Below, piece after piece: positions 1-14,907 of a DNA stretch of 15,204 nucleotides. The DNA lies in the IMG/VR virus record IMGVR_UViG_3300038974_000388, positions 1 through 15,204 of that record. One strand, written 5' to 3'. The position numbers and the translations under genes were made by a program. The notes under the pieces were generated by a model. The model did no database searches. It was not told the DNA's origin and saw nothing but the letters and a program-made list of their open reading frames with translations. Origin of the DNA: a virus. The number at the start of each line of letters is the position of its first letter. Within the stretch, counting starts at the first letter, position 1.

Positions 1-55
1 GGTTGAACTTCTCGCTCCAGGTATTTTCAGCCGATACGGAAATTTGCTTGATGAT
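1..55. repeat. Terminal direct overlap identical to 15150..15204 (circular closure of the sequence)
   Basis: The first 55 nt (GGTTGAACTT...GCTTGATGAT) recur exactly as the last 55 nt. A minus-strand ORF reads in frame across the join. Confidence 0.95.
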
Positions 56-61
56 CGCCAT
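1..61 (-). CDS. 5' end (ATG at 61..59) of a wrap-around 100-codon gene whose remainder is 14908..15204; small virion-module protein of unknown function
   Basis: AAGGAAGG RBS lies 6 nt upstream of the ATG (62-75). The frame continues into 15204..14908 once the 55-nt overlap is collapsed. Hand translation: MAIIKQISVSAENTWSEKFNLSGDTDGF...GPCLITVEQ. Confidence 0.7.
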   Translation of the reverse strand, partial: MAIIKQISVSAENTWSEKFN

Positions 62-106
62 TTTTTACCTTCCTTTTGGGATGGCGGGAGCCGTAGCCCC
101 CGCCTA

Positions 107-140
107 TATGGTATCATACCGTACCGTCCGGTATGGTATG
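107..140. repeat. GGTAY/GTACC motif cluster A in the intergenic gap between the 138-aa gene and the wrap-around gene
   Basis: ATGGTATCATACCGTACCGTCCGGTATGGTATG. The 13-mer GTACCGTCCGGTA (121-133) is identical to 8400-8412. Confidence 0.6.
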
Positions 141-149
141 TTTCACCTT

Positions 150-563
150 CTAGGCCTGGATATGGGCCTTGAAGTTGATGCCCGTCGCCACGGTGCCGGC
201 TACGGTCGTGTAGAGGCGGACATAAGGGTAAATGGTGCCCTTGTACTCGTTGCGGAAGGGGACCATGTACCGGCCCACGGTGCTGTCAGCATTGCCGCCG
301 ATGACCTCATTCGCCCCGAGGTTCAGACAAGCAAGCTCGACGATCACTTCGTCCCCGGTGGAGAAGTCGGACACGTCGCTTCCCTGAAGCGCAATGGAAT
401 AAAGCTCGGTCGCGTCGACCTCGATGGCGGACACGTCCACCACAAGGAAGCCTTCGACCAGGCCGGCGCCCACGTTGACGATCACGGCTTCGGAATCCAC
501 GGTTCCCGCTGCGGACTCGGCAACCAGGCCCGCGTCCTTCAGGATCATAGTGCTATCAATCAT
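150..563 (-). CDS. 138-aa head-module protein, possibly a capsid decoration/cement protein (function uncertain)
   Basis: Start trimmed to the ATG at 563, preceded by TAGGAGGTGG, in which the TAG is the capsid-gene stop. It lies immediately downstream of the major capsid gene. The sequence looks beta-rich, and I recognise no family motif. Confidence 0.45.
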   Translation of the reverse strand: MIDSTMILKDAGLVAESAAGTVDSEAVIVNVGAGLVEGFLVVDVSAIEVDATELYSIALQGSDVSDFSTGDEVIVELACLNLGANEVIGGNADSTVGRYMVPFRNEYKGTIYPYVRLYTTVAGTVATGINFKAHIQA

Positions 564-573
564 GGTCCACCTC

Positions 574-1491
574 CTAGGCGTTCTTGATGCCGCGCAGACG
601 TGCGGCGGCCTTCGGGTGAAAGACACCCATGCCACAAATCCACTCGATCAGGGTTTCGTACTTGGTGGAGTTCAGGCCCAGGTCCACCACGTCCATGGCT
701 CCCGCCTGGAGGCCGGACACCCACTCAGCCGCGCCGAAGCGGACGGCATAGATGGAGGTGCAAACGCTCTTGTCGCCGTTGTCCAGGTCGGGTTCGGTGA
801 AGCCGAGGATCTCGGCGCCGTCCTTGTCCTGCTCGATCACGGCAATGGGAATGCCCGCGTAGGCCGCAATCTGACGCCCGAAAGCATCGGAAACGGTTTC
901 CGTGGCCTGTCCAGCCGCCCGCATGAGCGCGTTCACCTTGCGGCGCATGGTCTTGTTCATGAACAGGACGTCCGGGGTTCCCTGGACTGCGTCGATCATT
1001 TCATCGAGCTTTGCCAAGGTCAGGGTGTCGCCGCCGTCGCTCGATCCCATGCTGATAAGCTGGTTCCCGGTCAGGCGCTCTTCAAGACCGTCGAACTCGT
1101 TGGGGTCGGTTTCGGAAGATCCCTTGAAGAACTTCTTCGTGAACTCCAGAGCCGCCGCCTTCGCCTTCATGCCGTCATAGGTGGCGCGAAGGTCGTTCAC
1201 GTTGCCCTGAGTCTTCACCAGGGCACGGTCCACGGCGCTGATGCCGCCCAGGACATACAGACGTTCGGTGACGGGGTTCAGAACGCCCGTGGACTCGGTA
1301 TAGCTGCCGTTGATGCCACGGAAGCCGATACCGGGAAGGGTCTTCTCCTGATTGTAGACGTAGGCCTGACCGTTCACGTTGAAGAACGGGAGGCGCTCCA
1401 GAACCGGAGACACTCGGGGGAAGATCTCGATCACGCCGCGCTGAAGCGGGTTCTGAACCAGCTTTGCGGCTTCCAAAAGAGTAATGCTCAT
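574..1491 (-). CDS. Major capsid protein (presumed HK97 fold)
   Basis: 305 aa, sitting directly after a scaffold-like gene and the portal. The stop of the upstream gene is embedded in its RBS (TGAGG). Size and synteny are typical of small-phage major capsid proteins. No search was run. Confidence 0.75.
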   Translation of the reverse strand: MSITLLEAAKLVQNPLQRGVIEIFPRVSPVLERLPFFNVNGQAYVYNQEKTLPGIGFRGINGSYTESTGVLNPVTERLYVLGGISAVDRALVKTQGNVNDLRATYDGMKAKAAALEFTKKFFKGSSETDPNEFDGLEERLTGNQLISMGSSDGGDTLTLAKLDEMIDAVQGTPDVLFMNKTMRRKVNALMRAAGQATETVSDAFGRQIAAYAGIPIAVIEQDKDGAEILGFTEPDLDNGDKSVCTSIYAVRFGAAEWVSGLQAGAMDVVDLGLNSTKYETLIEWICGMGVFHPKAAARLRGIKNA

Positions 1492-1502
1492 GTGAAATTA
1501 CC

Positions 1503-1898
1503 TCACTTTTTGCCGTATCCCTGCGCCATAATGGCTTGCGGGGACATGCCGTCGAAATTTACAGGCGGTTTCCCGCCAGGCCTCTTACTGTCTGGTCCAT
1601 TGGCTTGCTGATTCCCGCCGAAGACGCCCTTCTTGATCGCGGCCCGAAGCCACTTGATCTTCTGAGCCGGGGGAAGGTCCGGGATCACGTCGCGCATGTC
1701 CTCGGGGACCTCTTCCGCCAGCTCGACCGCGATTTCTTCGAGCGCCGCTTCCGCCACCTTCCGCTGATTGACCACCTGGTCGAAGCGGGACTTCGGAATC
1801 ATGTGTTCGCCTTTTTGGTCGGGTGCGTTTCCCGTGTTGCCTTGGACCTGGTCATTCACGCCGCTATCGGGGGCGCCGCCGTTCTGATCTTGAGTCAT
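1503..1898 (-). CDS. Scaffolding protein
   Basis: 131 aa, charged and helix-prone, lying between the portal and capsid genes. The IPKSRFDQVVNQRK segment resembles scaffold/GP20-type proteins. RBS AAAGGGGAAG. Confidence 0.6.
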   Translation of the reverse strand: MTQDQNGGAPDSGVNDQVQGNTGNAPDQKGEHMIPKSRFDQVVNQRKVAEAALEEIAVELAEEVPEDMRDVIPDLPPAQKIKWLRAAIKKGVFGGNQQANGPDSKRPGGKPPVNFDGMSPQAIMAQGYGKK

Positions 1899-1925
1899 GT
1901 CTTCCCCTTTTTCGCCGGGTAGGCG

Positions 1926-3230
1926 CTAAATTTTCGTTTCCAGAAATTCGCGGTTCTCGTCCTGGATCTCGACCAGGCGGACCTTGGCTTCATCCCGGGT
2001 CATGTCCGGGTTGCGCTCCAGCATGATGTCCACGGGACTGATGACGCCCATGGTCAAGAGCTGGTCCCAGGTCGCCGCCTGTTTATCCGCTGAAATGTTC
2101 GGCTTCTGGTCGAAGAAGTCGATCACGAGTTCGGCCTTCTCGCTAAACTTCCGTCCGGGGTTGTGATGGTTCCAGACGGTCTTGATCAGGCGGAAAAGCC
2201 GCCGTTCGTAGGCCCTGAAAAGTTCCACGTCGTCCCGACGCAATTCTTCCAGCTCGATGTTCCCGGCCACCTTCGCCACGCCGCTTTCATCGGTCGGGTC
2301 CGTGGTCAGGCTCGAAGCCGGAAGGCCATTGGACACCGCCGCTTGCTTCAGGAGGAAGTCCAGGACCTCCAAGGCCTCGGTCACGGGAGCGGACGTCTTC
2401 GCATAGCCAAGTTCACCGTCTGCGGGCAGATTGAAGAATCTCCCCGGGTCCACGTTCGTGAGTTCGCCCTTCATGCCCTTGACGTATCCGACGCCGAAGC
2501 CCTGCATCCGGAGCACATAGAGAAGGTCGGTCAGCTTCTCGTTGAAGGCCTCCTGGAGACTGACCAGGTCCGCCGCCCCCGGCGTCCAGTATGAATCAGT
2601 AGGAACGCGGTTCCATACGGTTTGATACGGTATGGTACCATACGGGTTGGGTTCGTTCTGTACCGGGTGCCCCCTGTAGTCGAGCCGCTGAAATTCCTTC
2701 GGCGTCCACAAGGAGTAGGTCAGTTCGTCTTCACGCCCGCTTTCCGGGTAGTGCGTGACCATGAAGGACTTCAGGTCCTCGGGAGAGTCCCCGACCGTTA
2801 CGTCGAGAATGTCCGGGGTCACCAGGTCCACGTCCAAGGCCCCATTTCGCCAGACGGGACGAAGCGCCACCAAGCCCAAGAGCTTGCTGTACCGGTTCGC
2901 CAGCTTCCACTTGGCCCCGAGCCAGGCCCCGCGCTCGATCTCCTGAAAGATCTCGTTGTCCCTGTCCGTCCCCTCGACCTTGCGCCGCGCATCCTGGACA
3001 TAGACCATTGCCAGACGGTTGATGACCTTCCGGACGATGTTCACAAAGCAAGGTGTCAGCTTGTCGGGGTCCGTGAAATGGAGCGCCAACGCTTCCTTGA
3101 TGTAGTCCGTCTGGAAGTCGTGGTAATAGTCCAGCCGCTTGGCCGCTTCCGTCTTCCGCTGTCTGGTGGCTTCCTGTATCGCCGCATTGAACGAGTCCCG
3201 GACCAGGTTTCCGGCTTGGGAAAAAATCAT
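1926..3230 (-). CDS. Portal protein
   Basis: 434 aa from the ATG at 3230 (RBS AGGAAGG). The 16-codon upstream extension in the ORF track lies in the repeat-rich intergenic region. The gene sits between terL and the scaffold gene, and its size is typical of a portal. Confidence 0.8.
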   Translation of the reverse strand: MIFSQAGNLVRDSFNAAIQEATRQRKTEAAKRLDYYHDFQTDYIKEALALHFTDPDKLTPCFVNIVRKVINRLAMVYVQDARRKVEGTDRDNEIFQEIERGAWLGAKWKLANRYSKLLGLVALRPVWRNGALDVDLVTPDILDVTVGDSPEDLKSFMVTHYPESGREDELTYSLWTPKEFQRLDYRGHPVQNEPNPYGTIPYQTVWNRVPTDSYWTPGAADLVSLQEAFNEKLTDLLYVLRMQGFGVGYVKGMKGELTNVDPGRFFNLPADGELGYAKTSAPVTEALEVLDFLLKQAAVSNGLPASSLTTDPTDESGVAKVAGNIELEELRRDDVELFRAYERRLFRLIKTVWNHHNPGRKFSEKAELVIDFFDQKPNISADKQAATWDQLLTMGVISPVDIMLERNPDMTRDEAKVRLVEIQDENREFLETKI

Positions 3231-3245
3231 GTTTGACCTTCCTTT

Positions 3246-3276
3246 GGTACCACTTGGTACCATACCATATAGTACC
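3246..3276. repeat. RGTACY motif cluster C upstream of the portal gene
   Basis: GGTACC at 3246 and 3256 (10-bp spacing) and AGTACC at 3271. A further GGTACG at 3306 falls inside the terL 3' end. Confidence 0.6.
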
Positions 3277-3293
3277 ATTCAACACCGTGTCAA
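3266..3293 (-). promoter_or_regulatory. Candidate sigma70-like promoter for the portal/head genes
   Basis: On the minus strand: TTGACA (3293..3288), a 16-nt spacer, then TATATG (3271..3266). RGTACY motifs overlap the -10 and the downstream region. Confidence 0.35.
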
Positions 3294-3294
3294 C

Positions 3295-4962
3295 CTATAT
3301 GGAACGGTACGATTTCACACCGCCGACATTCACCAAAGACTTGAAGAATTCCGGTAATGTAAGATCACTTTCTTCACGAATGGAACGGTGTTGAAGATAC
3401 ATTCCCTCACAACGCACATGAGCCGGACACTTCACGGCACAAGGAAGGATCAAGTCCCCCTGGCGAAGATAGCACATTGGCGCATGTCTTGACCGACTGT
3501 CGCAAATTATGTCCGGCAATTCATAGACCGCAAGTTCCCTTGCCCGAAGACTGTAAACCGCCCACGCCAACGAATAGACGCGGTCGTCGTGGTGCTTGTC
3601 CGTCCCGAACTTCGGCTTGTCGCCCTTGAGTTCATAGAAAAATGTCTCCATTTCCCGAACCAATTCTTCGTTCTTATCCGAGAAATGCAACCGCCCTTCC
3701 CGCACAATACGGTAAAGCTCCATGAAGGCCGGGACCTGAGCCGTAGAGGTCGCGTGAATGATCTCCGAGGGAATCCGCTGTTCCATGGCCCAGGTGGCTA
3801 TATCCTGCGCGTTGTAGGCCTCGATGACCACGTTCTTCAGGTCGTACTTCTCGAAGTCCCCTTGGATCTCCTTCTTGATCGACCGGCCCAAGCTCCCCAG
3901 GACGTTCTTCTGGTTCAATATCCAGAAATGAGGCTCCCCGCCGTCTGCGTCCGCCACCTTCGCAACCGAAGTCCATATCGTCGCGTCACCGTGGAGGCTC
4001 CCGAAATAGGCACGGTCAAGACCGCCGCCCGTCGCGTATTTCCGGCCCGCCGCTATGTCCTGCAAGCCCTCAGCCGTGAGAGGGTGCGGGATCTTCTCCC
4101 GGCAAGCCTGAATGTCCGGGACCGCGAAAAGACTATTCGCCGCCGCGCTGCGCTGGTTCAAATGCTGAGTTGCAAAGACCGCCGGCAAAAGCTGTTTCTG
4201 ACGGCTCCGGAGCCAAGCCCGATCAATCCAAGGCGGAGACTTCTCGACCGCCTCTTCGACGTCCCGGTACTCGATCCGGCGAACAAAGACCGTAGGGTCT
4301 TCCCCGGACTCCTGGAGCTGTTCCAGCCGATGAAGGGGACCGCCCACGCCGTCCACCGTCGAGTCGAGGAGCAACCAAGATCCTTCCGTATCGCCAAGAG
4401 ACGACGCCAAGACCTGCATAGGGTCTTCAGACGCCGCCGCGTGAATCTCCGACACCCAACCGCATGTCACCTTTTCGCCGTACAGGCCCGACACGTTGCA
4501 GGACACGGCCTGAATCACGTTCTGAAGTTTCGGGTGAAGGATGTCATAGGCCCTCAGGTTCTCCCGCCCGACCTGTCCCAGAAGGAAGGGGGTGTTCAGG
4601 ATGACCTTCTTGACCAGGTTGAAGCCTACGGAAAGGGTCTGGCGTTCGCTGTTCGCCATAACCTTGATGTTCTCGTTCGGCCCAAACAGGGTGAAGCGCC
4701 ATACAACCAGGAGCGCGTTCAAGGTCGTCTTCGAATGGCGCCGGGGGAAAGAGAAGGCTATCGTCTGGTGAAGCCACTTGCCCGAGTCGTCCCGCGCCAA
4801 CGCATCCCGGACCGCTTCGACCTGGAAGACCGCCGGCTTGAAGATCTCGAAGCCCCCCTTCTTGGACGGGATACGCGGCTTCACGTCTTCCACCCATTTG
4901 AGGAAGCCCTCAGCCCCCTGACGCCACGCTAGGACGTCCTTGGAGGTGAAGCCGGTACTCAT
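3295..4962 (-). CDS. terL: Terminase large subunit
   Basis: 555 aa from the ATG at 4962, which overlaps the stop of the upstream 58-codon ORF (ATGA). There is a Walker-A-like PRRHSKTT (4723-4746), and the C-terminal half is typical of a nuclease domain. The gene lies upstream of the portal. Confidence 0.9.
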   Translation of the reverse strand: MSTGFTSKDVLAWRQGAEGFLKWVEDVKPRIPSKKGGFEIFKPAVFQVEAVRDALARDDSGKWLHQTIAFSFPRRHSKTTLNALLVVWRFTLFGPNENIKVMANSERQTLSVGFNLVKKVILNTPFLLGQVGRENLRAYDILHPKLQNVIQAVSCNVSGLYGEKVTCGWVSEIHAAASEDPMQVLASSLGDTEGSWLLLDSTVDGVGGPLHRLEQLQESGEDPTVFVRRIEYRDVEEAVEKSPPWIDRAWLRSRQKQLLPAVFATQHLNQRSAAANSLFAVPDIQACREKIPHPLTAEGLQDIAAGRKYATGGGLDRAYFGSLHGDATIWTSVAKVADADGGEPHFWILNQKNVLGSLGRSIKKEIQGDFEKYDLKNVVIEAYNAQDIATWAMEQRIPSEIIHATSTAQVPAFMELYRIVREGRLHFSDKNEELVREMETFFYELKGDKPKFGTDKHHDDRVYSLAWAVYSLRARELAVYELPDIICDSRSRHAPMCYLRQGDLILPCAVKCPAHVRCEGMYLQHRSIREESDLTLPEFFKSLVNVGGVKSYRSI

Positions 4963-5135
4963 AGACCGAACCTCATGCAAAGACGCCCTAGGAAGCCCAG
5001 GCGCTTAAATAAGGCTATCTGGACGTGTCGAAGGATGATCTTGGTTGCAGGGGTCAGGAGGCGCTTAGGTACGCCCAAGGCGCGAAGCTCCCGTTCCATG
5101 TCCCGCTTCTCGAAGGTGTCCATGATCTTGATCAT
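4959..5135 (-). CDS. Untracked 58-aa ORF translationally coupled between terS and terL
   Basis: Hand translation: MIKIMDTFEKRDMERELRALGVPKRLLTPATKIILRHVQIALFKRLGFLGRLCMRFGL. Its ATG overlaps the terS TGA (ATGA at 5132-5135), and its TGA overlaps the terL ATG (ATGA at 4959-4962). A GGGGGG run lies 3 nt upstream of the start. Confidence 0.55.
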   Translation of the reverse strand: MIKIMDTFEKRDMERELRALGVPKRLLTPATKIILRHVQIALFKRLGFLGRLCMRFGL

Positions 5136-5620
5136 TCGCCCCCCTGGTTGCTGGCAATGTCCAGGACCGCGTCCGCCACATCGAGGACGCCGCCGTTCGA
5201 CTTCTGTTTCCGCTCGATCTTGATCAAGGCTTCAAGCGCCTTTGTCTGAGCCGCTTGGAACTTCGGGAAGTCCCGTGTCAGCATTTCGGGAATGACGCCG
5301 CCCTTCGAGACAAGCTCCCCTTGGTTCTCCTGGACGAAGTCGAGTATGGCCCTGTTCACCGTGGCATAGATCGCTATGTCGTGACGAAGGAGCGCCGCCG
5401 CCACCTTCTCGGGATCTTCTCCCAAGGCTTCCTTGACCGCGTTGAACTGCATCGCCGTCTTCGTGCGCTGGTCGAGGGTTCCTTCCTGAAGCGCCGCTAG
5501 GATACCGTCCACGTCCCGAGGCTTGCGCTTATTTCGGCCCACCTCTTCAGGAGCGCCCGCGCCGCGCCAAGTTCCATCCGGATTCCGAAGGCGTTCTTTT
5601 GGTTTCTTCCTGTTCGCCAT
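5132..5620 (-). CDS. terS: Terminase small subunit (putative)
   Basis: 162 aa from the ATG at 5620 (RBS AAAGGAAA). It has a basic N-terminus (MANRKKPKERLRN), lies directly upstream of terL, and is of typical size. The 83-codon upstream extension in the ORF track runs through the repeat region. Confidence 0.6.
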   Translation of the reverse strand: MANRKKPKERLRNPDGTWRGAGAPEEVGRNKRKPRDVDGILAALQEGTLDQRTKTAMQFNAVKEALGEDPEKVAAALLRHDIAIYATVNRAILDFVQENQGELVSKGGVIPEMLTRDFPKFQAAQTKALEALIKIERKQKSNGGVLDVADAVLDIASNQGGE

Positions 5621-5706
5621 GGTCGATAATTTCCTTTCCCTTCTGGTGTCAGTATTTTGACATAAGCCATTGAAATTCAAATTTAAATGATTGGTCCATC
5701 GTTTAA

Positions 5707-5995
5707 GGTATTTCCACTTTTCTTTCAGGTACTTGCGGAGTCGTGGCCCTTCGACCTGATCCGGGGGGACAAGGACACCTTTTTTCCTGTCCTTCTGGTG
5801 AAGGTACTCTTCCCGTCCTTCGGTACTCTGAAAGGTACTCAGTACTTTGGTACCTAAGTCCCTTCCCATTTCCCCTTCCCGTCCCCCTCTTAGGTACTCT
5901 GAAGGTACTCTGAAGGTACTCTGAAGGTACTATTCCCGAAAGGTACTGAAGGTACTCTCCCCTATAGGGGAGTACCGTACCTAACTCTGAGTACT
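5707..5995. repeat. Iteron-like RGTACY array with an 11-bp tandem block, a 16-bp palindrome and a C-run tract; candidate ori and/or pac region
   Basis: RGTACY hexamers start at 5728, 5803, 5822, 5834, 5841, 5849, 5893, 5904, 5915, 5926, 5942, 5951, 5971 and 5990. GGTACTCTGAA is repeated tandemly in 5893-5931. The perfect palindrome CTCCCCTATAGGGGAG is at 5957-5972. An AT-rich stretch at about 5640-5700 adjoins the array. Confidence 0.7.
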
Positions 5996-6006
5996 TAACG
6001 GAGTTC

Positions 6007-7971
6007 CTAGTCTTCATCGGTGTCGTGCTCCACTGGTACCCAGATACCGCGCCCGATTCCCTTCTTGATCAAACCGAGGTCTTTCAGCTTCATGACGATT
6101 CGCTTCATGCACTGGACGACCGCTTCTTCGTTGGGACCGAAGACCAGACCTTCCGCCGCGCATTTATTCCGCCATTCCGCAAGGCTTGGGTAGGATGACT
6201 GAGAAAGGTCCTTCAGGATCGCCAGGGACTTCATTTCCCGCGCTCCAGCCTCTTTTCCGTCCATAGACACCTCAACCTGACTTAGAACGCCTGAGTCGCC
6301 GCGTCTGAACCATACGGGGACGTATGCCGCCGGGGGGAGTCGGTTGCCCTTTGTGGCTACGAACTGGACAAGGCGCTTCCGTTCTTCCACGTCCTCGATG
6401 CCGGCCTTTTGGGCCTCCTTCGCGGTCATGTTCCGAAGCGCGTATTCGCCGCGTACCGCGTCGGTGATGGCGCCGCCGCCTCGGGAATTGTGGCTTGTGA
6501 TTTCGTCCGCGCTGTTGCTGGCCTTGGTGGCATGGGAGACAAGGACGCACGTTGCGCCGGTACGAACGGCCATGTCGTCAACCATTTTGCCAAGGCGGCG
6601 CTGTTCGTCCTGTTTGAGTTCGTCACCCTCGCTCAGGGACAAGGCGGGGTCGAATCCGACGAAGACCACGTCGCCAAGATCCAGGACTTCTTTCACGAAG
6701 GAGTTGAACAGATCCGACTTTACCAAGACGCCCTTGTCGTCCTTCACAAGAAAGAGGCAGTCTTCCCCGGCCTTGGGGTGAATGATCAAGTTTTGGTCAA
6801 GGATGTCGATCTCTTCATCGGTGCAGTTCAAGGCCTTGCACATATTGAAAATGGAGTCGTGGACGTCGTCCGCCGTGTCCTCGGTCAAGACCAGGACGGC
6901 CTTTCCTGTCTTGACGATCTCCCATTCCCAAGGGACGCGGCCCAGGACTGCGCCTATTGCCATTTGCTTCAAGAGGGTCGTCTTCGAAGATCCGCCGATA
7001 CCGGTCAAAAGAAGGCCTCGGCCCTGCGGCATTCGCTGTTTGGCGAACCACGGGAACGGTGGCGGCGCTGTCGTCGCCATTCGCTTGATGGATACCGGGG
7101 AGTCCCACGGCCCTTTTGGTTTGGTTTCCTCGGGGACTTTGGCGACGATCTCCCGGAGCTGGTCGATGGTGCCGCCGGCGTCGAGCCAATCGGACACGTC
7201 CCCCTTCTGGGGAAGCCCGGGGAGTTCAACCAGGCGGACGGAGTCCACGAACGGCTTGATCTTGATCCGGACGTCCTCGGCATGGTCACGGCCTGGCTTG
7301 TCGTTGTCGGGAATGATGATGACCTTCTTTCCCTTCAGAAATTGGCCGTACTCGTCCCGCCACTTGCCTGAACCCATGGGGTTGCATGTCGCCACCAAGC
7401 CCAAGTCCTTGAGCCGGAGAACGTCCTTCTCGCCTTCGACGATGAAGACCGTCTTCGCGGTCAGGACTTCGGGAAGGTTGAAGGGAACAAGGCGGACGCC
7501 CTGGACGTTCTCGATCCACTTTTCGGCCTGGAAGTCATAGTGCCATTGGCGGAAGGTCTTTTCACGCCCTTCTTCCTCGAACCTGAGGACGCTAAAGGCA
7601 TAGGTCCCGTCTTCAAAGGTGTAGTCGTACCGGTCTGTCTGGTTTGCTTCGACCGCCCGCGCTTTTTCCTTTTTCTTCCCGTCACCATTCCCATTCAGTC
7701 CGACCAGGTGGGCGAGTTCGCCTAAGGCCTCCTGGAAGGTGACGCCGCGCCGCTCCTGGACGAAGGAGAAGACGTCGCCCTTGGCCCCACATCCTTGGCA
7801 GAAATACAAGCCGGTCTTGACGTTGCAGTACAGGCTTGGGGTGTCGTCGTCGTGGAATGGACAACGGGCCGGGAGTTCATCCCCATTCAACCGCTGTTCA
7901 CAGTCGAGTTCGGACCTGTAGAACGATTCGAAATTGATCTTATCAAGGACGTCTGACTTTTCGATGGTCAA
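6007..7971 (-). CDS. Bifunctional DNA primase / replicative helicase (CHC2 zinc finger + TOPRIM + RecA-like AAA_25/RepA-type NTPase + C-terminal DNA-binding-like tail)
   Basis: The zinc finger is CPFHDDDTPS...CQGCG and the TOPRIM segment is FIVEGEKD...IIIPDNDKPGRDH. The Walker A is GIGGSSKT (6979-7002), with Walker-B-like VLVLTED. The start is TTG at 7971, preceded by GGGAGGTG and overlapping the upstream TGA. Confidence 0.9.
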   Translation of the reverse strand: MTIEKSDVLDKINFESFYRSELDCEQRLNGDELPARCPFHDDDTPSLYCNVKTGLYFCQGCGAKGDVFSFVQERRGVTFQEALGELAHLVGLNGNGDGKKKEKARAVEANQTDRYDYTFEDGTYAFSVLRFEEEGREKTFRQWHYDFQAEKWIENVQGVRLVPFNLPEVLTAKTVFIVEGEKDVLRLKDLGLVATCNPMGSGKWRDEYGQFLKGKKVIIIPDNDKPGRDHAEDVRIKIKPFVDSVRLVELPGLPQKGDVSDWLDAGGTIDQLREIVAKVPEETKPKGPWDSPVSIKRMATTAPPPFPWFAKQRMPQGRGLLLTGIGGSSKTTLLKQMAIGAVLGRVPWEWEIVKTGKAVLVLTEDTADDVHDSIFNMCKALNCTDEEIDILDQNLIIHPKAGEDCLFLVKDDKGVLVKSDLFNSFVKEVLDLGDVVFVGFDPALSLSEGDELKQDEQRRLGKMVDDMAVRTGATCVLVSHATKASNSADEITSHNSRGGGAITDAVRGEYALRNMTAKEAQKAGIEDVEERKRLVQFVATKGNRLPPAAYVPVWFRRGDSGVLSQVEVSMDGKEAGAREMKSLAILKDLSQSSYPSLAEWRNKCAAEGLVFGPNEEAVVQCMKRIVMKLKDLGLIKKGIGRGIWVPVEHDTDED

Positions 7972-8363
7972 GCGGACACCTCCCGTCTGAGGTCCAAAAG
8001 TTGCTTGGTCACCTCGATTGCTCGGGGATCGTTGCCGCCGTGGCGGTCAGGATGGCAAAGGACGATCAGGTCCTTGATGAATGGCTTTATGCGGTCGAGG
8101 ACTTTTGATCCTGCGCTTGGAGGTGGCTCCGGGCTGTACCCGTTCTGCTTCGCCAGAAGGGAAAAATATAAGCCTCGGTAGAACTCGGAATCACGCCGAA
8201 GACGGTTCAGCTCGTCACGGTCAACGAAGACGCTGTCGGGGTCCGACTCGCCGCGCTCCATGGACTTTCGACGCTTGAAGCATTTGATGCAGACGGTCTT
8301 CCACTCTTCGCCATAGTCGTGGTGGAAGGACTCTCCGCAGTCTGAACAATATTTGTAGGGCAT
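7968..8363 (-). CDS. Zinc-ribbon protein with a C-terminal J-domain-like segment (HPD motif)
   Basis: 131 aa from the ATG at 8363 (RBS AGGAGG). The N-terminus has CSDCG...CIKC. The C-terminus, IKDLIVLCHPDRHGGNDPRAIEVTKQLLDL, matches helix II-HPD-helix III of DnaJ J domains, with the HPD codons at 8046-8054. Confidence 0.55.
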   Translation of the reverse strand: MPYKYCSDCGESFHHDYGEEWKTVCIKCFKRRKSMERGESDPDSVFVDRDELNRLRRDSEFYRGLYFSLLAKQNGYSPEPPPSAGSKVLDRIKPFIKDLIVLCHPDRHGGNDPRAIEVTKQLLDLRREVSA

Positions 8364-8398
8364 AGGGGTTGCCTCCTGAGGCTTCCCCAAGCTGACGT

Positions 8399-8448
8399 GG
8401 TACCGTCCGGTACTGAATGGTACCGTTTAGTACCGTTTGGTACTGTAT
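8399..8448. repeat. Five RGTACY units at exact 10-bp phasing (cluster D) upstream of the replication operon
   Basis: GGTACCGTCC GGTACTGAAT GGTACCGTTT AGTACCGTTT GGTACTGTAT, with units starting at 8399, 8409, 8419, 8429 and 8439. Confidence 0.8.
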
Positions 8449-8451
8449 GGT

Positions 8452-8478
8452 TTGACTTCTGGCGGGAGAGGGTAAAAT
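8452..8478 (+). promoter_or_regulatory. Candidate plus-strand promoter (the only one facing against the genes)
   Basis: TTGACT (8452-8457) and TAAAAT (8473-8478). The spacer is only 15 nt, which is a weakness. The -35 overlaps the degenerate last unit of the 10-bp array. Confidence 0.3.
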
Positions 8479-8484
8479 ATCAAG

Positions 8485-8558
8485 GTTACCACGCCGAGAG
8501 AATTTTATTTCTCTCCCCCCAGAAGCCCAAGTACCATGTCGCTTGGGCTTTTCTTTAT
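8485..8558 (+). ncRNA. Candidate ~70-nt countertranscript RNA with two stem-loops
   Basis: Hairpin 1 is GAGAGAA/TTCTCTC (8496-8515). Hairpin 2 is AAGCCCAAG/CTTGGGCTT (8523-8550), followed by TTCTTTAT, so it has an intrinsic-terminator shape only on the plus strand. No plus-strand CDS lies nearby. Confidence 0.3.
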
Positions 8559-8755
8559 CTCATGGTGATTGGCGTCGAGGTTGTCTTCCTGTCCCTCGGC
8601 GCGTACTCGCCGCAAAAATTATTCGCCGCCGACATAGGCCACGCCTCTTTTCCCGCCCTCGGGGATCTCCGGTGACATTCGCCAAGATCCTTCCCTTCTT
8701 CCGTCTGGGGCGCGAACCAGTAACGACATTTCCGGCATTCCATTCCGTTACTCAT
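8555..8755 (-). CDS. 66-aa Cys-rich miniprotein (CxxC...C...C), function unknown
   Basis: ATG at 8755, with AAGGAG 9 nt upstream. The pattern ECRKCRYW...GECHRRSP...WP...NFCGEY recalls small hypothetical phage proteins. Confidence 0.6.
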   Translation of the reverse strand: MSNGMECRKCRYWFAPQTEEGKDLGECHRRSPRAGKEAWPMSAANNFCGEYAPRDRKTTSTPITMR

Positions 8756-8803
8756 GAGATAGACTCCTTGGGCATCTTGCCCTGTATATGGTTGTCTTCG
8801 GCA

Positions 8804-9313
8804 CTATGCCTCAGACGGGACATTCTCGTATTTAATTTTCAGTTTATCGGCAATTTCTCTAAGTATTTCTGAAATATTATAGAACGCAACAAACTTGCTT
8901 TTGTTGACGCATTCTTCCGAAATTAAAAATTCATATTTTCCATCTTCAAGAGTATATTTGATATATGGTCCATTACCGAATTTTTGATATGACCTAACAA
9001 AATTAATTTTGTTATACATATACATGATCCAGTAACTTTCATCTGTATTTTCAAATGCACAATATAAATGATTGTCTAAGTTTTGAAATATAACATTCGT
9101 TATTGCTTCCGAAACTTCAATCGAAAAGCCCATTTCTTCGAAAAAGAAAAAGACGCCGGCCTTCATGGCGGTTTCCGGCGAAAATGTATTCGCTTTGCCC
9201 TGCCCCGAAGTTGGCGTCTCGGGAACAATGTTCCCGCGCTTCACCAGGAAGCGGAATCTGTCGGGGTTGACCCCGAGGGGAAGATAAATGTCTTTCGGTT
9301 TGAGTCTCTTCAT
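8804..9313 (-). CDS. 169-aa protein: N-terminal excisionase/MerR-like HTH fused to an AT-rich-encoded domain of unknown function
   Basis: The N-terminus, LKPKDIYLPLGVNPDRFRFLVKRGNIVPE, resembles HTH_17/AlpA-type motifs. DNA from about 8804 to 9110 is visibly far more AT-rich than the rest of the element. RBS GGGAGC. Confidence 0.55.
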   Translation of the reverse strand: MKRLKPKDIYLPLGVNPDRFRFLVKRGNIVPETPTSGQGKANTFSPETAMKAGVFFFFEEMGFSIEVSEAITNVIFQNLDNHLYCAFENTDESYWIMYMYNKINFVRSYQKFGNGPYIKYTLEDGKYEFLISEECVNKSKFVAFYNISEILREIADKLKIKYENVPSEA

Positions 9314-9381
9314 TCGTGCTCCCGCGTTGACTTCGAAATAAACTTAGTTTTTTTACGAAGTCATGTCAAGCGGGAATGTGA

Positions 9382-9645
9382 TTATTTTTTTTCTTCGATA
9401 ATTGCTTGAATTTCCTTATCAATCGCCGCCAAGACAACCTTTTTGATAAAGCCCTGAATGCTACCTGGTCTGTGCTCTTTGATGAACTGGAGCTTCGCCA
9501 GCTCGACTTCGGACAGTCTCAGGTTGAAGCCCTTCATCACTCTGGGGTCAAGGTCGGCCCACGGAAGACGATCATATTCTTCCTCAGCCGCGCCGATGAA
9601 TTTTTCGGCCTGGTCCAGGGTAGGACGGGGGTTGAACTTCGTCAT
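9382..9645 (-). CDS. Ribbon-helix-helix partition/centromere-binding protein (ParG/omega-like partner of ParA)
   Basis: 87 aa. Its ATG overlaps the ParA TGA (ATGA at 9642-9645). FNLRLSEVELAKLQFIKEH...SIQGFIKKVVLAAI fits a strand-helix-helix pattern. Confidence 0.6.
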   Translation of the reverse strand: MTKFNPRPTLDQAEKFIGAAEEEYDRLPWADLDPRVMKGFNLRLSEVELAKLQFIKEHRPGSIQGFIKKVVLAAIDKEIQAIIEEKK

Positions 9646-10289
9646 TTGAAAAGCTCCTTGTAAAGCTGTCGGATTTCGTGCGCCGCATAGGACGCCGCTT
9701 CGAACTCGGGGACCGACTTTCCCGCGCCGCTGGCCCGCCGGTATGCAATCCGTTCTGACAAGGTGGTCCTGATCAGTGTCATGTCGGGGAACTCGCCTTC
9801 GATGAATTCCCGGGCCTCCTCGGCTTCCTTCACGGAAGGGTTCGTACTGGCGAAGTTGAGGACCACGAAGACGGCAATCTCCGGGTTGATGACACGGGCC
9901 TCATTCACCAGGCGGTCAATGGTCGAAAGGCTCCACAAGTCGAACTGAGAAGGCCTGACCGGGACCAGAAGGACGTCCGCCACCAGGAGCGCCGCTCGGA
10001 GTTCGACCGAGTCGCGCCCGCCGGCGTCGATCACTATGTCCGAAAATTTTGGAGCAAGGGTCTTGATCTCCTGATGAAGGCCCTTCCCTGTCAGTTGTAC
10101 CGTGGTCACCTTCGGGAGCTGGTCGTCATTCAAGCCCTTCCTGAGCGCCGCCCACATGGAGCTTGAAAGCTGTTTGTCCGCGTCCACCAAGAGGACGTCA
10201 CGGCCCTTGCTGGAGGCCTGAGCCGCCATGTTCACGGCAATGGTACTCTTGCCAACTCCGCCCTTCTCCGCGCCGCATAGAAGAATCAT
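9642..10289 (-). CDS. parA: ParA-family partition ATPase (small, type Ib)
   Basis: It carries the deviant Walker A GAEKGGVGKST. It is about 215 aa from the ATG at 10289 (GAGGTG 5 nt upstream) and has no N-terminal HTH extension. Confidence 0.9.
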   Translation of the reverse strand: MILLCGAEKGGVGKSTIAVNMAAQASSKGRDVLLVDADKQLSSSMWAALRKGLNDDQLPKVTTVQLTGKGLHQEIKTLAPKFSDIVIDAGGRDSVELRAALLVADVLLVPVRPSQFDLWSLSTIDRLVNEARVINPEIAVFVVLNFASTNPSVKEAEEAREFIEGEFPDMTLIRTTLSERIAYRRASGAGKSVPEFEAASYAAHEIRQLYKELFK

Positions 10290-10304
10290 ATCCACCTCAA
10301 AGAA

Positions 10305-10322
10305 GGCGGGGTTTCCCCCGCC
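10305..10322 (-). terminator. GC hairpin with a T-rich tail between orf109 and parA (partial terminator/attenuator)
   Basis: GGCGGGG-tttc-CCCCGCC. On the minus strand it is followed by TTCTTTGAGG, which runs straight into the parA RBS. Confidence 0.35.
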
Positions 10323-10328
10323 CTATAT

Positions 10329-10658
10329 TCAAGACGCCTGAGCGCGTTCATTCCCGATCAACCGCGCATCGCAGAATTTTCCCGCCACGCCTTCCTTCTC
10401 GTTCTCTTCCGCGTAGGTGTATCGGGTGACGCTGATGCTCCCGACCTTGCGGTCGATAATCTCGAAGGCTTCGTCCATAACTCGCTTCTGGTTGAGAAGG
10501 AGAACGTCGAGGACGCGGGCACAAAGAGCGGGGTGTCCTTCCCCGGGGACGAACTGTCCGTCCACGCCTTCAAGGATCTGGGTGAAGGCCACGATAGGCT
10601 TGAAGGAGTCTTCCAGAATGTCTTTCAGGTCTTCGGACCAGGTGTCTCTTGGTTCCAT
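10329..10658 (-). CDS. 109-aa acidic protein, function unknown
   Basis: The ATG at 10658 is preceded by GGGGGAG, with the upstream TAA stop between the SD and the ATG. It has a clear excess of Asp/Glu, and I recognise no motif. Confidence 0.6.
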   Translation of the reverse strand: MEPRDTWSEDLKDILEDSFKPIVAFTQILEGVDGQFVPGEGHPALCARVLDVLLLNQKRVMDEAFEIIDRKVGSISVTRYTYAEENEKEGVAGKFCDARLIGNERAQAS

Positions 10659-10660
10659 GG

Positions 10661-10954
10661 TTACTCCCCCAACCTGTCAGACAGATTTTCCATGATTTCG
10701 AAAATATGGTCGGCTTCCTGCCGAAGCATGATCGCCAGGGTCCCGCGCTCTTCCTTGTCGAAGTCCTCGAATTCCCAAAGGGTCCGGCCCATGAACTTCA
10801 GCCGGTTCACGGATTCCAGAAGACGATCAAGGTCTTCCTGATCGACCTTGCGCCGCGTTTCCCGGTTGCTGTCGCAATTCGCGCATGAACGGTTCCCGAC
10901 GCACATTTCAGCCTTGCGTTCCGCCTGAGCCGCCAATACTTGTACTTCAGCCAT
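10661..10954 (-). CDS. 97-aa acidic, coiled-coil-prone protein with a CxxxxxCxxC patch, function unknown
   Basis: ATG at 10954, with AGGAGG 8 nt upstream. Confidence 0.6.
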   Translation of the reverse strand: MAEVQVLAAQAERKAEMCVGNRSCANCDSNRETRRKVDQEDLDRLLESVNRLKFMGRTLWEFEDFDKEERGTLAIMLRQEADHIFEIMENLSDRLGE

Positions 10955-11024
10955 TGCATGAACCTCCTGTCGGTTCTGTTGTGGTTAGGCGTTGGTCTGG
11001 TGTTCCCGCACCAGGCCGGCGCCG

Positions 11025-11315
11025 CTATTCGACTCTAAGGACCTTCTCCATTTCGCTGGTGGGGATGAACCATCTTCTCGGACCGATCTTCTTGCCCTTG
11101 ATGACGCCTTCCTTCAGCCATTTTCTGACCGCCGCCGGGGTGACACCGATTCGAGAAGCGAACTCGATTGTCGTTATCATTTCCGGCTTCGGCTGTTCGG
11201 CCTTTGTCTTTTGTTCCATCATATTTCTGAATGCCTCCTGACGTTCTGGGTCCATCCCCTGAAGGGATCTCTTCAGCTCGATGAAGTCCGGGTCATTGAT
11301 CAAATCGTCTTTCAT
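11025..11315 (-). CDS. Excisionase-family HTH DNA-binding protein (possible RDF or AlpA-like regulator)
   Basis: 96 aa from the ATG at 11315. Its RBS TAGGAGG contains the recombinase stop codon. The C-terminus, ITTIEFASRIGVTPAAVRKWLKEGVIKGKKIGPRRWFIP, matches the HTH_17/excisionase pattern. Confidence 0.7.
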   Translation of the reverse strand: MKDDLINDPDFIELKRSLQGMDPERQEAFRNMMEQKTKAEQPKPEMITTIEFASRIGVTPAAVRKWLKEGVIKGKKIGPRRWFIPTSEMEKVLRVE

Positions 11316-11326
11316 GTCGTGGCCTC

Positions 11327-11998
11327 CTACGCGGCCTTTTTCAGCACGTTCGCCACGGTACCGAAGGACCACGGCTTGCCCGTCTTGGTGAAGACGCCGT
11401 CCCGGTTCAGGGTGTCGGCAATCCGTTGAAAACTGTATCCCTTGGCCCGAAGGTTCAGGATCTTGGTCATGGTGGCTTGTTCTTCTGGGTTCTCAACCAG
11501 GCGTCCGTCCTCGGTCACGTTGAAGCCGAAGGGGACCTTCCCCCCGAGCTTCTCCCCCTTGGACTTCTTCACCGTCAACGCGGCCCTGGTCCGCTCCCCG
11601 ATGGTTTCCCGCTCCCACTCGGCAACCGAGGTCAGGAGGTTGAGAACGAAGCGCCCCGAGGCGGTCCGGGTATCGATTTGCTCGGCCACGACAAACAGGT
11701 CGAAGGCGTCCCTGAAGTATTCGTCCAGAAGACCGCCCATGTCTCGGACGGACCGTGTCAGACGGTCGAGCTTCGCCACGACAAGCCCTTCGGCTTCGCC
11801 CCGCCTGAGCGCCGAAAGCGCATCCTGAAGGCCTGAGCGCAGGAGGTTCTTGCCGCTGGCCGCGTCCTTGTGAATCTCGACCAGCTCCAGGTCATAGAGG
11901 GAGCAATAAGCCCGGATCTTCTCCGTCTGGTCGGTAAGGCCAAGACCTGAGGCCTCTTGTCCGTCCGTACTGACTCGAATATATCCCATGACTTTCAT
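11327..11998 (-). CDS. Serine recombinase, short form (resolvase catalytic domain + 'recombinase' domain, no zinc-ribbon/coiled-coil)
   Basis: 223 aa from the ATG at 11998 (RBS AAGGAGGGGGAG). The catalytic motif is YIRVSTDGQ, and the E-helix segment is GRFVLNLLTSVAEWERETIGERT. The segment GGKVPFGF...GKPWSFGTVANVLKK is typical of the large-serine-recombinase RD domain, but the protein ends there. Confidence 0.9.
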   Translation of the reverse strand: MKVMGYIRVSTDGQEASGLGLTDQTEKIRAYCSLYDLELVEIHKDAASGKNLLRSGLQDALSALRRGEAEGLVVAKLDRLTRSVRDMGGLLDEYFRDAFDLFVVAEQIDTRTASGRFVLNLLTSVAEWERETIGERTRAALTVKKSKGEKLGGKVPFGFNVTEDGRLVENPEEQATMTKILNLRAKGYSFQRIADTLNRDGVFTKTGKPWSFGTVANVLKKAA

Positions 11999-12032
11999 TT
12001 TCTCCCCCTCCTTGGGTTGCCCTTTCGCCACC

Positions 12033-12061
12033 TCTATGTTCTTCCGTTGCGTTAATGTCAA
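12033..12061 (-). promoter_or_regulatory. Candidate promoter for the recombinase-led gene string
   Basis: On the minus strand: a perfect TTGACA (12061..12056) preceded by an AT-rich tract, a 17-nt spacer, then a weak -10 CATAGA (12038..12033). Confidence 0.25.
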
Positions 12062-12154
12062 TAAATATTTTTGATCTCTTCAGATTTCCCACAAGGCGTA
12101 GGATGCTGAATTTTGTTCTATTTCAATTATTTCGAAGACTTGTCTAAATTCTCC

Positions 12155-12190
12155 AAAAAAAGGTGGCGCAATAGTGAACTATTGCGCCAC
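12155..12190 (-). terminator. Intrinsic terminator T2 formed by a 28-bp perfect palindrome
   Basis: GTGGCGCAATAGT-GA-ACTATTGCGCCAC (12163-12190). On the minus strand the stem is followed by CTTTTTTT (12155-12162). Confidence 0.6.
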
Positions 12191-12267
12191 GTCGGCTATT
12201 TTTTCCCATGTAATTTTCGCCGGAAGAATGAATTTTCTTCAGTAAAAAATACACTGGATTTTATTTG

Positions 12268-12284
12268 CTATTGCGCCATGTCGG
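12268..12284. repeat. Third copy of the palindrome half-site plus flank
   Basis: CTATTGCGCCATGTCGG matches CTATTGCGCCACGTCGG (12179-12195) at 16 of 17 positions, in the same orientation, 89 bp away. Confidence 0.7.
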
Positions 12285-12303
12285 AAGAAATAGATCGTTG
12301 CTG

Positions 12304-12351
12304 AATAAAAATCCCCCACAAGACCAGAGGGCGGAATGTCTTGCGGGGGAT
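12304..12351 (-). terminator. Intrinsic terminator T1 after the RuvC-like gene
   Basis: The minus-strand RNA reads AUCCCCCGCAAGAC-13 nt-GUCUUGUGGGGGAU, a 14-bp stem with one G-U pair, followed by UUUUUAUU. Confidence 0.8.
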
Positions 12352-12388
12352 CATGGGCCTTTTGTTGCGGCCTAAATCTATGTCGGGT

Positions 12389-12844
12389 TTATTTGGATTG
12401 TCGTCTGGCCCACCATGCCAAGAGCAAGGCGTCTGCTCGGCCGTGGTCCTTTTTTCTGGAAAGCTCCACGTCAGGGAAAAGACGCCTTGCCACGGTGATA
12501 GCGCGGGCCTTTGTGTCTGCTCCATCTGAAGTGGTCACCAGGCCCTTTTGCCACTCCTGCGGTCTTGTCATGACGTAGGGGACAAATAGCGCAGACAGGA
12601 CGCCTTGCCACTGCCCGAGGTTCTGCCCGAAGGTGAACATGCTTTTCACTCCCTGCCCCGGCATGGCGTGAACGCTCTCCAGGGCCGCGAGTTCGATATT
12701 GAATTCGGTGCGCCACTCCAGCAGCAGTTCAGCAGCCCCGGCCGCGTCTCCCGGCCAATCCTCGACAAGCTGACCGTCACGATGAACGAGGGCGATTGCT
12801 CCGTTCTTGCCGGGATCAATCCCGATCCATGCACATGGCTTCAT
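12389..12844 (-). CDS. RuvC-like Holliday junction resolvase (phage type)
   Basis: 151 aa. It has WIGIDPGKNGAIAL at the N-terminus, an internal acidic E, and HGRADALLLAWWA near the C-terminus, matching the RuvC-fold catalytic pattern. Its ATG overlaps the upstream TGA (ATGA at 12841-12844). Confidence 0.75.
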   Translation of the reverse strand: MKPCAWIGIDPGKNGAIALVHRDGQLVEDWPGDAAGAAELLLEWRTEFNIELAALESVHAMPGQGVKSMFTFGQNLGQWQGVLSALFVPYVMTRPQEWQKGLVTTSDGADTKARAITVARRLFPDVELSRKKDHGRADALLLAWWARRQSK

Positions 12845-13026
12845 CCTCTAGGCTCCTTGGCGGTTATCGTGGCCGGTCCTGTTCGTTCCCGCAGTTCCTT
12901 GACCTCGGCCTGTAGTTTCTGGATCTCGGACCATAACTTGCGCGTCCGGCTGTCGATCATGCTTTCGAGTCCATGAACCTCATCTTCGAGCGTCTGGACG
13001 CGGTCGGGAAGGTCGGGGTGTCTCAT
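12841..13026 (-). CDS. 61-aa coiled-coil protein, function unknown
   Basis: Heptad-like LEDEVHGLESMIDSRTRKLWSEIQKLQAEVKELRE. It is translationally coupled to the resolvase gene, but its own RBS is weak. Confidence 0.5.
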   Translation of the reverse strand: MRHPDLPDRVQTLEDEVHGLESMIDSRTRKLWSEIQKLQAEVKELRERTGPATITAKEPRG

Positions 13027-13044
13027 GGTCTGCCTTTGGAGAAA

Positions 13045-13082: not shown

Positions 13083-13095
13083 GGTGCTCAGGAGG

Positions 13096-13326: not shown

Positions 13327-13333
13327 TATTCCC

Positions 13334-14428: not shown

Positions 14429-14433
14429 GGTCC

Positions 14434-14898: not shown

Positions 14899-14907
14899 GG
14901 CTTCCCC

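Follow-up and report, generated by a model that had tools for sequence, protein, structure and literature searches.

A candidate iteron origin directly downstream of a RepA-type primase-helicase gene in a small, plasmid-like viral element

The DNA analysed here, called the window throughout, is the whole 15,204-nt viral contig IMGVR_UViG_3300038974_000388 of IMG/VR (positions 1 to 15,204 of that record), which comes from a bioreactor metagenome. Its two ends overlap exactly over 55 bp (1-55 = 15150-15204), which indicates a circular (or concatemer-derived) assembly with a unit of 15,149 bp. A survey of its open reading frames (ORFs) places all credible genes on the minus strand. This report concerns the 386-bp gap between the gene for a 654-aa primase-helicase, whose stop codon occupies 6007-6009, and a gene tentatively called terS, the next gene on the minus strand, whose ATG start codon is at 5620. 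The gap is filled with short repeats, or iterons. We propose, with a probability of about 0.8, that these iterons form a replication origin read by the C-terminal tail of the primase-helicase. The core of this origin would most likely be 5892-5995 of the circular element.

Along the sense (minus) strand, starting at the primase-helicase stop codon, the gap contains three iterons, a palindrome, two iterons in the opposite orientation and four iterons spaced at 11 bp, followed by a purine-rich tract, a cluster of five iterons, a conserved block, an AT-rich stretch and the start codon of the terS-like gene. These features and their two flanking genes are as follows.

6007-7971, minus strand: primase-helicase gene, 654 aa (Pfam, PHROG)
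6010-6276, minus strand: tail-coding region of that gene (residues 566-654); the tail is modelled as a winged helix and proposed to read the iterons (AF2 model, covariation)
5621-6006: non-coding gap between the primase-helicase and terS-like genes
5971-5995, minus strand: iterons next to rep, in 'reverse' orientation; no repeat lies closer to the stop codon (sense AGTACT..GGTAC GGTAC)
5957-5972, no strand: 16-bp palindrome CTCCCCTATAGGGGAG, centred on TATA, where melting and loading are proposed to occur
5942-5956, minus strand: two 'forward' iterons beyond the palindrome (sense AGTACC..AGTACC)
5892-5931, minus strand: four forward iterons with a phasing of 11 bp, i.e., one helical turn (sense unit AGTACCTTCAG; Tandem Repeats Finder, TRF)
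5858-5890, no strand: C-run, G/A-rich on the sense strand, lying between the core origin and the second iteron cluster
5803-5854, minus strand: second iteron cluster, five RGTACY copies
5759-5787, minus strand: conserved block (sense GGAAAAAAGGTGTCCTTGTCCCCCCGGAT), terS-linked, independent of iteron class and outside the iteron system
5728-5733, minus strand: lone GGTACT copy, which may be a chance match
5640-5712, no strand: AT-rich stretch directly upstream of the terS-like gene (GC 0.27-0.33)
5132-5620, minus strand: 'TerS' candidate, 162 aa, named from position only

A preliminary description of the window had already singled out this gap, and its account of the anatomy holds in every particular. 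The gap is indeed non-coding, as no ORF within it is kept in the relatives; neither L001 nor L026, two of the relatives introduced below, has an equivalent of the 104-aa ORF at 5703-6017. The hexamer RGTACY does occur 14 times in it (starts 5728, 5803, 5822, 5834, 5841, 5849, 5893, 5904, 5915, 5926, 5942, 5951, 5971 and 5990), where 0.44 copies would be expected per 386 bp from the rate outside the gap (Poisson P about 8e-17); the whole window holds 31 copies, versus 5.3 +/- 2.3 in shuffled sequences. The tandem 11-bp array was recovered by TRF at 5892-5931, with a period of 11, 3.6 copies and 100% matches. The 16-bp palindrome is perfect (arms 8+8, 100% complementary) and is flanked, as described, by GGTACT (5951-5956) and AGTACC (5971-5976). 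The C-run amounts to 58% C across 5858-5890, and the AT-rich stretch has a GC content of 0.33 in 5640-5700 versus 0.567 for the contig, with 5653-5712 being the contig's third-lowest-GC 60-nt window. Scans with Rfam and for tRNA returned nothing in the gap.

The placement of these elements is regular. The first iteron (5990-5995) begins 12 nt past the stop codon, a placement shared by 11 related loci, and the relatives carry two or three reverse-oriented iterons 7-33 nt past that codon. Folded as single-stranded DNA, the extended dyad reaches -11.8 kcal/mol (z -2.5). The C-run corresponds in the relatives to a purine-rich, poorly conserved tract. The second iteron cluster lies 40 nt from the core and is confined to the family of ~15-kb elements, where L001, L027 and L029 build it from their own GGACA motif; it is probably an accessory part of the origin, and by analogy with iteron plasmids it may hold auxiliary, copy-control or enhancer iterons. 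The AT-rich stretch, of which the sub-block TTGAATTTCAA..CTTA.GTCAA.AT is partly kept in close relatives, may be either a promoter or leader for terS or an unwinding element of the origin.

Protein and pattern searches yielded six close relatives whose primase-helicases are 77-81% identical to that of the window: L001 (= L028), L026, L027, L031 (nearly identical to L027 in the gap region), L029 with L039, and L030. All six show the same layout in the same gap, built from iterons of one of two classes. In the GTACC class, which here comprises the window, L026 and L030, the units are AGTACCTTCAG or GCGTACCTTCA and the palindrome is CTCCCCTATAGGGGAG; in the GTCC(C) class, comprising L001, L027/L031 and L029, the units are TGTCCCTGAAA and the palindrome is TTCCCCCTATAGGGGAA or TTCCCCTTAAAGGGGAA. 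The difference between the classes is thus essentially one iteron base. An equivalent array phased at 11-12 bp is present in L001, L026, L027, L029, L030, L032, L033 and L036-L038, the last five of which are more distant relatives.

One part of the primase-helicase follows the iteron class. The last ~90 residues of the protein, its tail, are 64-73% identical within a class versus 34-54% between classes, while the identities of the zinc ribbon, Toprim and helicase parts group the proteins independently of class. The clearest case is the pair L030 (GTACC) and L027 (GTCC), whose proteins are 98%, 94% and 93% identical in the zinc, Toprim and helicase parts and 44% identical in the tail. At the nucleotide level, identity between the two falls from 92% to 53% at about nucleotide 1700 of the gene, i.e., at the boundary between helicase and tail, and stays at 42-55% from there through the iteron field. 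This drop at the tail boundary, together with the low identity through the field, argues that tail and field were exchanged as one cassette.

The other candidate readers encoded by the element do not track the iterons. The 'TerS' of the window (GTACC) is 80% identical to that of L001 (GTCC) versus 69% to that of L026 (GTACC), and the L026 protein, from a GTACC element, is 80% identical to those of L027 and L029 (GTCC). Similarly, p87, an 87-aa protein encoded after ParA, is in L029 (GTCCC) 77-88% identical to its counterparts in the window and L030 (GTACC) versus 55-67% to those in L001 and L027 (GTCC). ParA and a small zinc (Zn) protein show no pattern by iteron class. Thus, p87, ParA, the Zn protein and 'TerS' were rejected as readers of the field, their similarity being discordant with iteron class.

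The primase-helicase itself consists of a DnaG-type CHC2 zinc ribbon (PF01807), a Toprim domain (PF13155), a RepA/AAA_25 helicase (PF13481) and the C-terminal tail. It belongs to PHROG 239, 'DNA primase/helicase', and its nearest solved chains are RSF1010 RepA (1g8y, E 1e-13) and DnaG zinc domains. Protein searches of GenBank phages and PLSDB plasmids returned only distant RepA-type helicases that have no such tail. For the tail, a winged-helix fold is predicted: an AlphaFold2 (AF2) model of residues 552-654, made from a 37-sequence alignment, shows three helices and a beta hairpin with a mean predicted local distance difference test (pLDDT) score of 75.7, and its informative Foldseek matches are winged helices (cullin WHB, ScpA, Fur/Mur, the DNA-bound winged helix of KAT6A, ORC2, MecI and RTP). 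The preliminary description had guessed that the C-terminal tail might be the reader; the covariation of the field with the tail only, and this predicted fold, support the guess.

Within the tail, position 620, in the third helix, separates the two classes. It is Gln in 5/5 GTACC-type tails, namely the four whose iterons were read and P0015, a protein that resembles P0009 and has no relative in IMG/VR; it is counted as predicted GTACC-type, GTACC iterons being expected from its Gln. In 13/13 GTCC(C)-type tails, five of them from loci found by DNA pattern only, the residue is Lys or Arg. In protein-DNA contacts generally, Gln tends to prefer A, and Lys and Arg tend to prefer G. Applying this tendency to position 620 and the iteron base, we infer that Gln620 is a candidate specificity residue.

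The same association recurs well beyond the close relatives. Five loci (L032, L033, L036, L037 and L038) encode primase-helicase homologues at 37-48% identity, and in each the core starts within about 30 nt of the stop codon. These genes lie in islands with a tyrosine integrase and AlpA/HTH_17 genes; they carry other primase domains, there is no terS downstream, and their downstream genes are mutually unrelated. It follows from the latter that the conserved partner of the field appears to be the upstream helicase gene, and not a downstream operon. In L032, L036, L037 and L038 the core reads as two GGGACA copies, an AT-centred palindrome, two TGTCCC copies and then four or five phased TGTCCC copies; L033 has GGTACA/TGTACC iterons. 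The AT-centred palindrome is kept at the same place in all relatives, and its arms vary by lineage and stay complementary nonetheless (CCCC/GGGG, AGCAT/ATGCT, CACCT/AGGTG), which points to selection on the dyad itself. Separately, L037 (4428-4464) and L038 (4655-4713) have extra GGGACA/TGTCCC clusters inside the region coding for the winged-helix tail, possibly additional iterons.

The design can also be found from DNA alone. When 2.9 million IMG/VR contigs were scanned for GGACA-N0-2-GGGACA-N10-22-TGTCCC-N-TGTCCC, 27 loci emerged, and at 23 of them an AAA_25-like ORF ends within -77 to +393 nt of the pattern, the distance being at most 150 nt in 16 of the 23. All ten upstream ORFs tested contain PF13481, joined to Prim-Pol/PriCT_1, PriCT_2, Toprim_3 or no primase domain. 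A tblastn search (E<=1e-5) had placed 0/35 pattern loci beside a C-terminus like that of the primase-helicase; this was a failure of sensitivity, since a helicase-domain hidden Markov model and Pfam found AAA_25 at 23 of the 27 GGGACA loci. In six IMG/VR contigs of 38-42 kb (L053, L059, L060, L065, L067 and L068), a field of more than 10 GGGACA/TGTCCC copies lies 110-175 nt past an AAA_25 helicase ORF of ~760 aa. As these are full-size phage contigs, the same origin design would appear to serve complete phages and not only satellites.

Along with that covariation and that predicted fold, two lines of comparative evidence favor the origin half of the preliminary proposal that the field is 'ori, pac, or both': the layout recurs 3' of homologous helicase genes in unrelated contexts, and it agrees with the origins of Staphylococcus aureus pathogenicity islands (SaPIs) (PMC9371898). 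Several observations weigh on the other side. The AT centre of the dyad is only 4-8 nt long, and the AT-rich stretch lies ~200 nt away beside terS. Since all genes are on the minus strand, cumulative GC skew falls nearly monotonically and is uninformative on the origin. GGTAC clusters are not unique to the gap: arrays phased at 10 bp at 8398-8451 and 3244-3276 share the core of the iteron, independently of the origin class of the relatives. The GTACC class is documented in only four loci from two lineages, and a GTACC version of the IMG/VR scan gave eight loci, none beside an AAA_25 gene, most of them being coding or GC-rich GGTACC repeats. The best Foldseek E-value of the tail is 0.06, with none below 1e-3, so that the match is one of fold class only. 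Lastly, tail and field are adjacent, and recombinational co-inheritance alone would also yield covariation between them; against this last argument, however, the coincidence of the breakpoint with the domain boundary is exact, and distant lineages show the association of tail and field again.

Starting from anatomy, conservation, covariation and fold class, all of which were observed or modelled directly, we infer a course for binding, melting, loading and priming. The winged helix of the tail would read the short iteron (A/T)GTACC. The winged helices of a hexamer would dock on the phased and inverted iterons, the 11-bp phasing putting the sites on one face of the DNA helix. The DNA would melt at the TATA centre of the palindrome, possibly with extrusion of a hairpin, and the helicase would load itself there, probably as one ring on each side. 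The fused primase would then start synthesis, and the outcome would be theta-type replication without a separate initiator.

Among the alternatives, the one that survives best, itself unlikely, is that the iterons serve mainly in transcriptional control of terS and the late operon, where the tail or another protein, once bound, would gate transcriptional read-through or initiation, with an origin role that is additional or absent. All genes are co-oriented, the field lies between the replication and packaging genes, promoter and terminator scans found no sigma-70 consensus match and no terminator in the gap, and the initiators of iteron plasmids commonly autoregulate. A control region for the downstream operon sits poorly, however, with the distant relatives, among which the downstream genes are unrelated, and a dyad around an AT centre is the layout of an origin.

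Less likely still is that the hexamer field is a pac site, in which the small terminase would bind clusters of RGTACY and terL would cut nearby, as at the pac site of P1; this is the half of the preliminary proposal that found no support for the hexamers. The terS-like gene and the packaging operon begin immediately 3' of the field, and many phage pac sites lie in or beside terS. The identification of the gene as terS, also made in the preliminary description, reduces however to its position upstream of a 58-aa ORF and terL: the 162-aa product matches nothing in Pfam, PHROG or NCBIfam, relaxed thresholds included, and its AF2 model is helical and of low confidence (pLDDT 64), with only generic coiled coils among its Foldseek matches. 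Its family comprises 16 proteins, mostly on contigs of 13.6-15.6 kb. As described above, 'TerS' similarity does not follow iteron class, and the field stands after homologous helicase genes in islands that have no terS. Conversely, in L041 and L042 homologues of the terS, terL, portal and capsid genes are combined with replication genes unrelated to those of the window (DUF6371 in L041, an NrS1-like primpol/DUF3987 in L042), and the region upstream of terS contains no GTMCC field. L041 has iterons of its own elsewhere, at 7067-7190, directly after its DUF6371 rep gene and two genes from terS, consisting of three copies of GGGGGACTT, an AT-rich centre and three copies of AGTCCCCC; we count this arrangement in favor of the origin.

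What does travel with terS is the separate block at 5759-5787. The sequence GAAAAAAGGTGTCCnTGTC is found upstream of the terS-like gene in 7/7 elements, whatever their replication module, with the invariant core AAA.GGT.....TGTC; these include L041 (7835-7860) and L042 (4328-4420). In L042 the block is part of a 62-bp direct repeat, present in two copies. Because it accompanies terS irrespective of the replication module, the block is a better candidate than the iterons for pac or for a control site or promoter of the late operon, and its separation from the iterons narrows the search for such a site.

Very improbable, in turn, is that the field is a partition centromere bound by p87, in the manner of type Ib par sites or the heptad arrays of pSM19035 omega. 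The element does encode ParA and, in p87, a small protein with an N-terminal strand like that of ribbon-helix-helix (RHH) proteins, and short phased direct or inverted repeats are typical of such sites. As a partner of the field, p87 fails on its discordance with iteron class; moreover, 3.4 kb separate the field from the par genes, and the field is present in islands in which no ParA gene was called in the stretch examined. It is hardly credible that the repeats arose by slippage in a spacer and have no function. The 11-bp tandem units are 100% identical, as recent slippage predicts, and the assemblies of two relatives break inside the array, but the same layout accompanies proteins of only 37-48% identity and both motif classes, with stereotyped orientation and spacing and an enrichment of P about 1e-16.

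The arrays outside the gap form a second repeat system with the 10-bp unit TGGTACYGTW. One lies upstream of the operon of the Zn protein and primase-helicase, the other in the gap between terL and portal. Counterparts exist in L001 (11690-11770 and 9113-9137), L029 (8847-8879) and L030 (2373-2405). Because these arrays are kept in relatives of both origin classes, GTACC and GTCC, they are probably read by a different, conserved protein, for which p87, the HTH_17 protein and the Zn protein are candidates. Close to the first array, at 8521-8550, is a hairpin (AAGCCCAAG...CTTGGGCTT) with TTTCTTT after it on the plus strand, a strand that carries no credible gene. A similar hairpin occupies the equivalent position in L001 (5436-5466). 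The element could be terminator-like, or could act on the minus strand.

The remaining genes of the window are listed below.

14434-14898, minus strand: head-tail adaptor (Ad1; family searches)
13334-14428, minus strand: MuF-like head morphogenesis protein (family searches)
12389-12844, minus strand: RuvC-like resolvase (family searches)
11327-12061, minus strand: small serine recombinase/resolvase (family searches)
11025-11372, minus strand: HTH_17 protein (family searches)
9642-10295, minus strand: ParA (family searches)
9382-9645, minus strand: p87, 87 aa, with an RHH-like N-terminal strand, encoded after ParA
8804-9313, minus strand: low-GC ORF, 169 aa
7968-8363, minus strand: small Zn protein
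3295-4980, minus strand: terL (PHROG 9)
1926-3230, minus strand: portal
1503-1898, minus strand: scaffold
574-1491, minus strand: major head protein

The 15,149-bp unit contains only head and packaging genes of the virion type, with no tail or lysis gene among its genes, which argues for a tail-less, capsid-forming, plasmid-like element; from its gene content it looks like a capsid-forming satellite maintained as a plasmid. Near-identity searches of GenBank phages and PLSDB plasmids gave no match. Relatives of the element occur in wastewater and activated sludge; their length is 15.2-15.7 kb. The ORF at 8804-9313 has a GC content of 0.28-0.39 versus 0.567 for the contig and no family match; its L001 counterpart is 81% identical. 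The ORF may be acquired cargo. The RuvC-like gene and a small preceding ORF lie between the recombinase and head genes in the window (12389-13026) and between terS and terL in L001 (9141-9739), and this difference in place suggests that the module has transposed within the family.

If correct, these assignments provide an origin and its reader for a ~15-kb family of tail-less, capsid-forming, plasmid-like elements that is represented in bioreactor and wastewater metagenomes and has no cultured member. They also provide a search handle, as the signature GGGACA - palindrome - TGTCCC locates such origins from the DNA pattern alone. The class difference of one base and one residue constitutes a compact, testable code for winged-helix specificity, and offers a test of replicon incompatibility among satellites. 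More tentatively, and with somewhat less than an even chance of being right in all its parts, we suggest that the tail and adjoining field are the swappable specificity cassette of a very large group of RepA/AAA_25 self-loading initiator-helicases that occur in phages, satellites and islands and have so far not been described. Their specificity would switch between GTACC and GTCCC by essentially one base pair and one residue (Gln for A:T, Lys/Arg for C:G), and exchange would take place among near-identical, co-occurring elements. If this is true, exchange would let elements escape replicon incompatibility or the cross-hijacking of their initiators.

The closest parallel in layout is that of the SaPIs. 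Their Reps are initiator-helicases that load themselves and recognise iterons of five or six nucleotides through a C-terminal winged helix; the specificity varies between elements, and the motors are SF3-like or MCM-like AAA+ domains of 3'-5' polarity (PMC9371898). The SaPI origin begins directly behind the rep ORF and contains 6-12 such iterons, at least two to either side of a central AT-rich region of ~80 bp, the two sides being oppositely oriented (PMC9371898). In the window, too, the candidate origin immediately follows a rep-type ORF; the core 5892-5995 holds nine short iterons (14 RGTACY in the gap), in opposite orientations around a centre (three reverse versus two plus four forward copies); and a predicted winged-helix tail tracks iteron class. 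As in the fused PriRep of SaPI5, the primase is in the same polypeptide. The differences are that the centre of the window's field is a 16-bp palindrome with an AT core of 4-8 nt, the 60-70-bp AT-rich stretch being ~200 nt off; that an 11-bp phased array is added, as is a second iteron cluster in the 15-kb family; and that the motor is PF13481/AAA_25, with RSF1010 RepA as its closest solved relative, joined to a DnaG-type primase. Because SaPI Reps are SF3- or MCM-like and this motor is AAA_25, the protein is not a member of the SaPI Rep family. The layout of the SaPIs would thus also have been built, convergently, on RecA-fold RepA/AAA_25 helicases.

Other systems share parts of this design. 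The alpha protein of P4 (Ziegelin et al. 1993-95; Yeo et al. 2002) reportedly combines a primase, an SF3 helicase and a C-terminal winged helix that reads short iterons. Those iterons are octamers of the TGTTCACC type; the P4 gene is not directly followed by the ori, and crr is kilobases distant. The window resembles P4 in having primase, helicase and a predicted winged-helix tail in one polypeptide and two iteron-bearing cis regions, and differs in its helicase family and in the second cluster being 40 nt and not kilobases off. No sequence similarity to P4 alpha was detected, and 1KA8 is not among the top 50 fold matches of the tail.

With the IncQ plasmid RSF1010 the window shares its helicase family (1g8y, E 1e-13) and an iteron-based origin. 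Matches named 'helicase RepA family protein' occur in 676 plasmids at 25% identity and end at query residue ~290 of 364; the plasmid RepA has no winged-helix tail. In IncQ plasmids, the best-studied form of this helicase family, a separate initiator is needed: RepC reads 20-mer iterons, and a separate primase, RepB', acts at ssi sites. In the window, family searches found no RepC-like gene, the primase is fused, and iterons of 5-7 nt track the helicase's own tail. The T7 gp4 protein, with its Zn ribbon, Toprim and hexameric RecA-fold helicase, has its domain order in common with the primase-helicase and differs in lacking a domain that binds the origin; promoters, and not iterons, define the T7 origin.

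Further afield, ORF904 of the archaeal plasmid pRN1 joins a prim-pol to an SF3 helicase with a winged-helix region, and replication needs a cis element just downstream of rep, a 100-nt stem-loop that has to be intact (PMC4234260). Both systems thus have a multifunctional primase-helicase and a downstream dyad, the pRN1 element being a stem-loop and not an iteron field. A layout of short inverted repeats round a central dyad is likewise shared with eukaryotic viruses, which differ in their SF3 motors and unrelated DNA-binding domains. There, SV40 large T and papillomavirus E1 act as initiator-helicases at inverted pairs of repeats around a dyad with AT elements, on which they assemble head-to-head hexamers. 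A literature search for a RepA-type helicase combined with a 3' origin returned the SaPI and pRN1 analogues and no description of the family of the window, which is no proof of absence. Judged from its sequence, the system of the window would be a self-loading initiator of the SaPI/P4 type with a 3' iteron origin, set on a RepA-type helicase and provided with a stereotyped core of dyad plus phased array.

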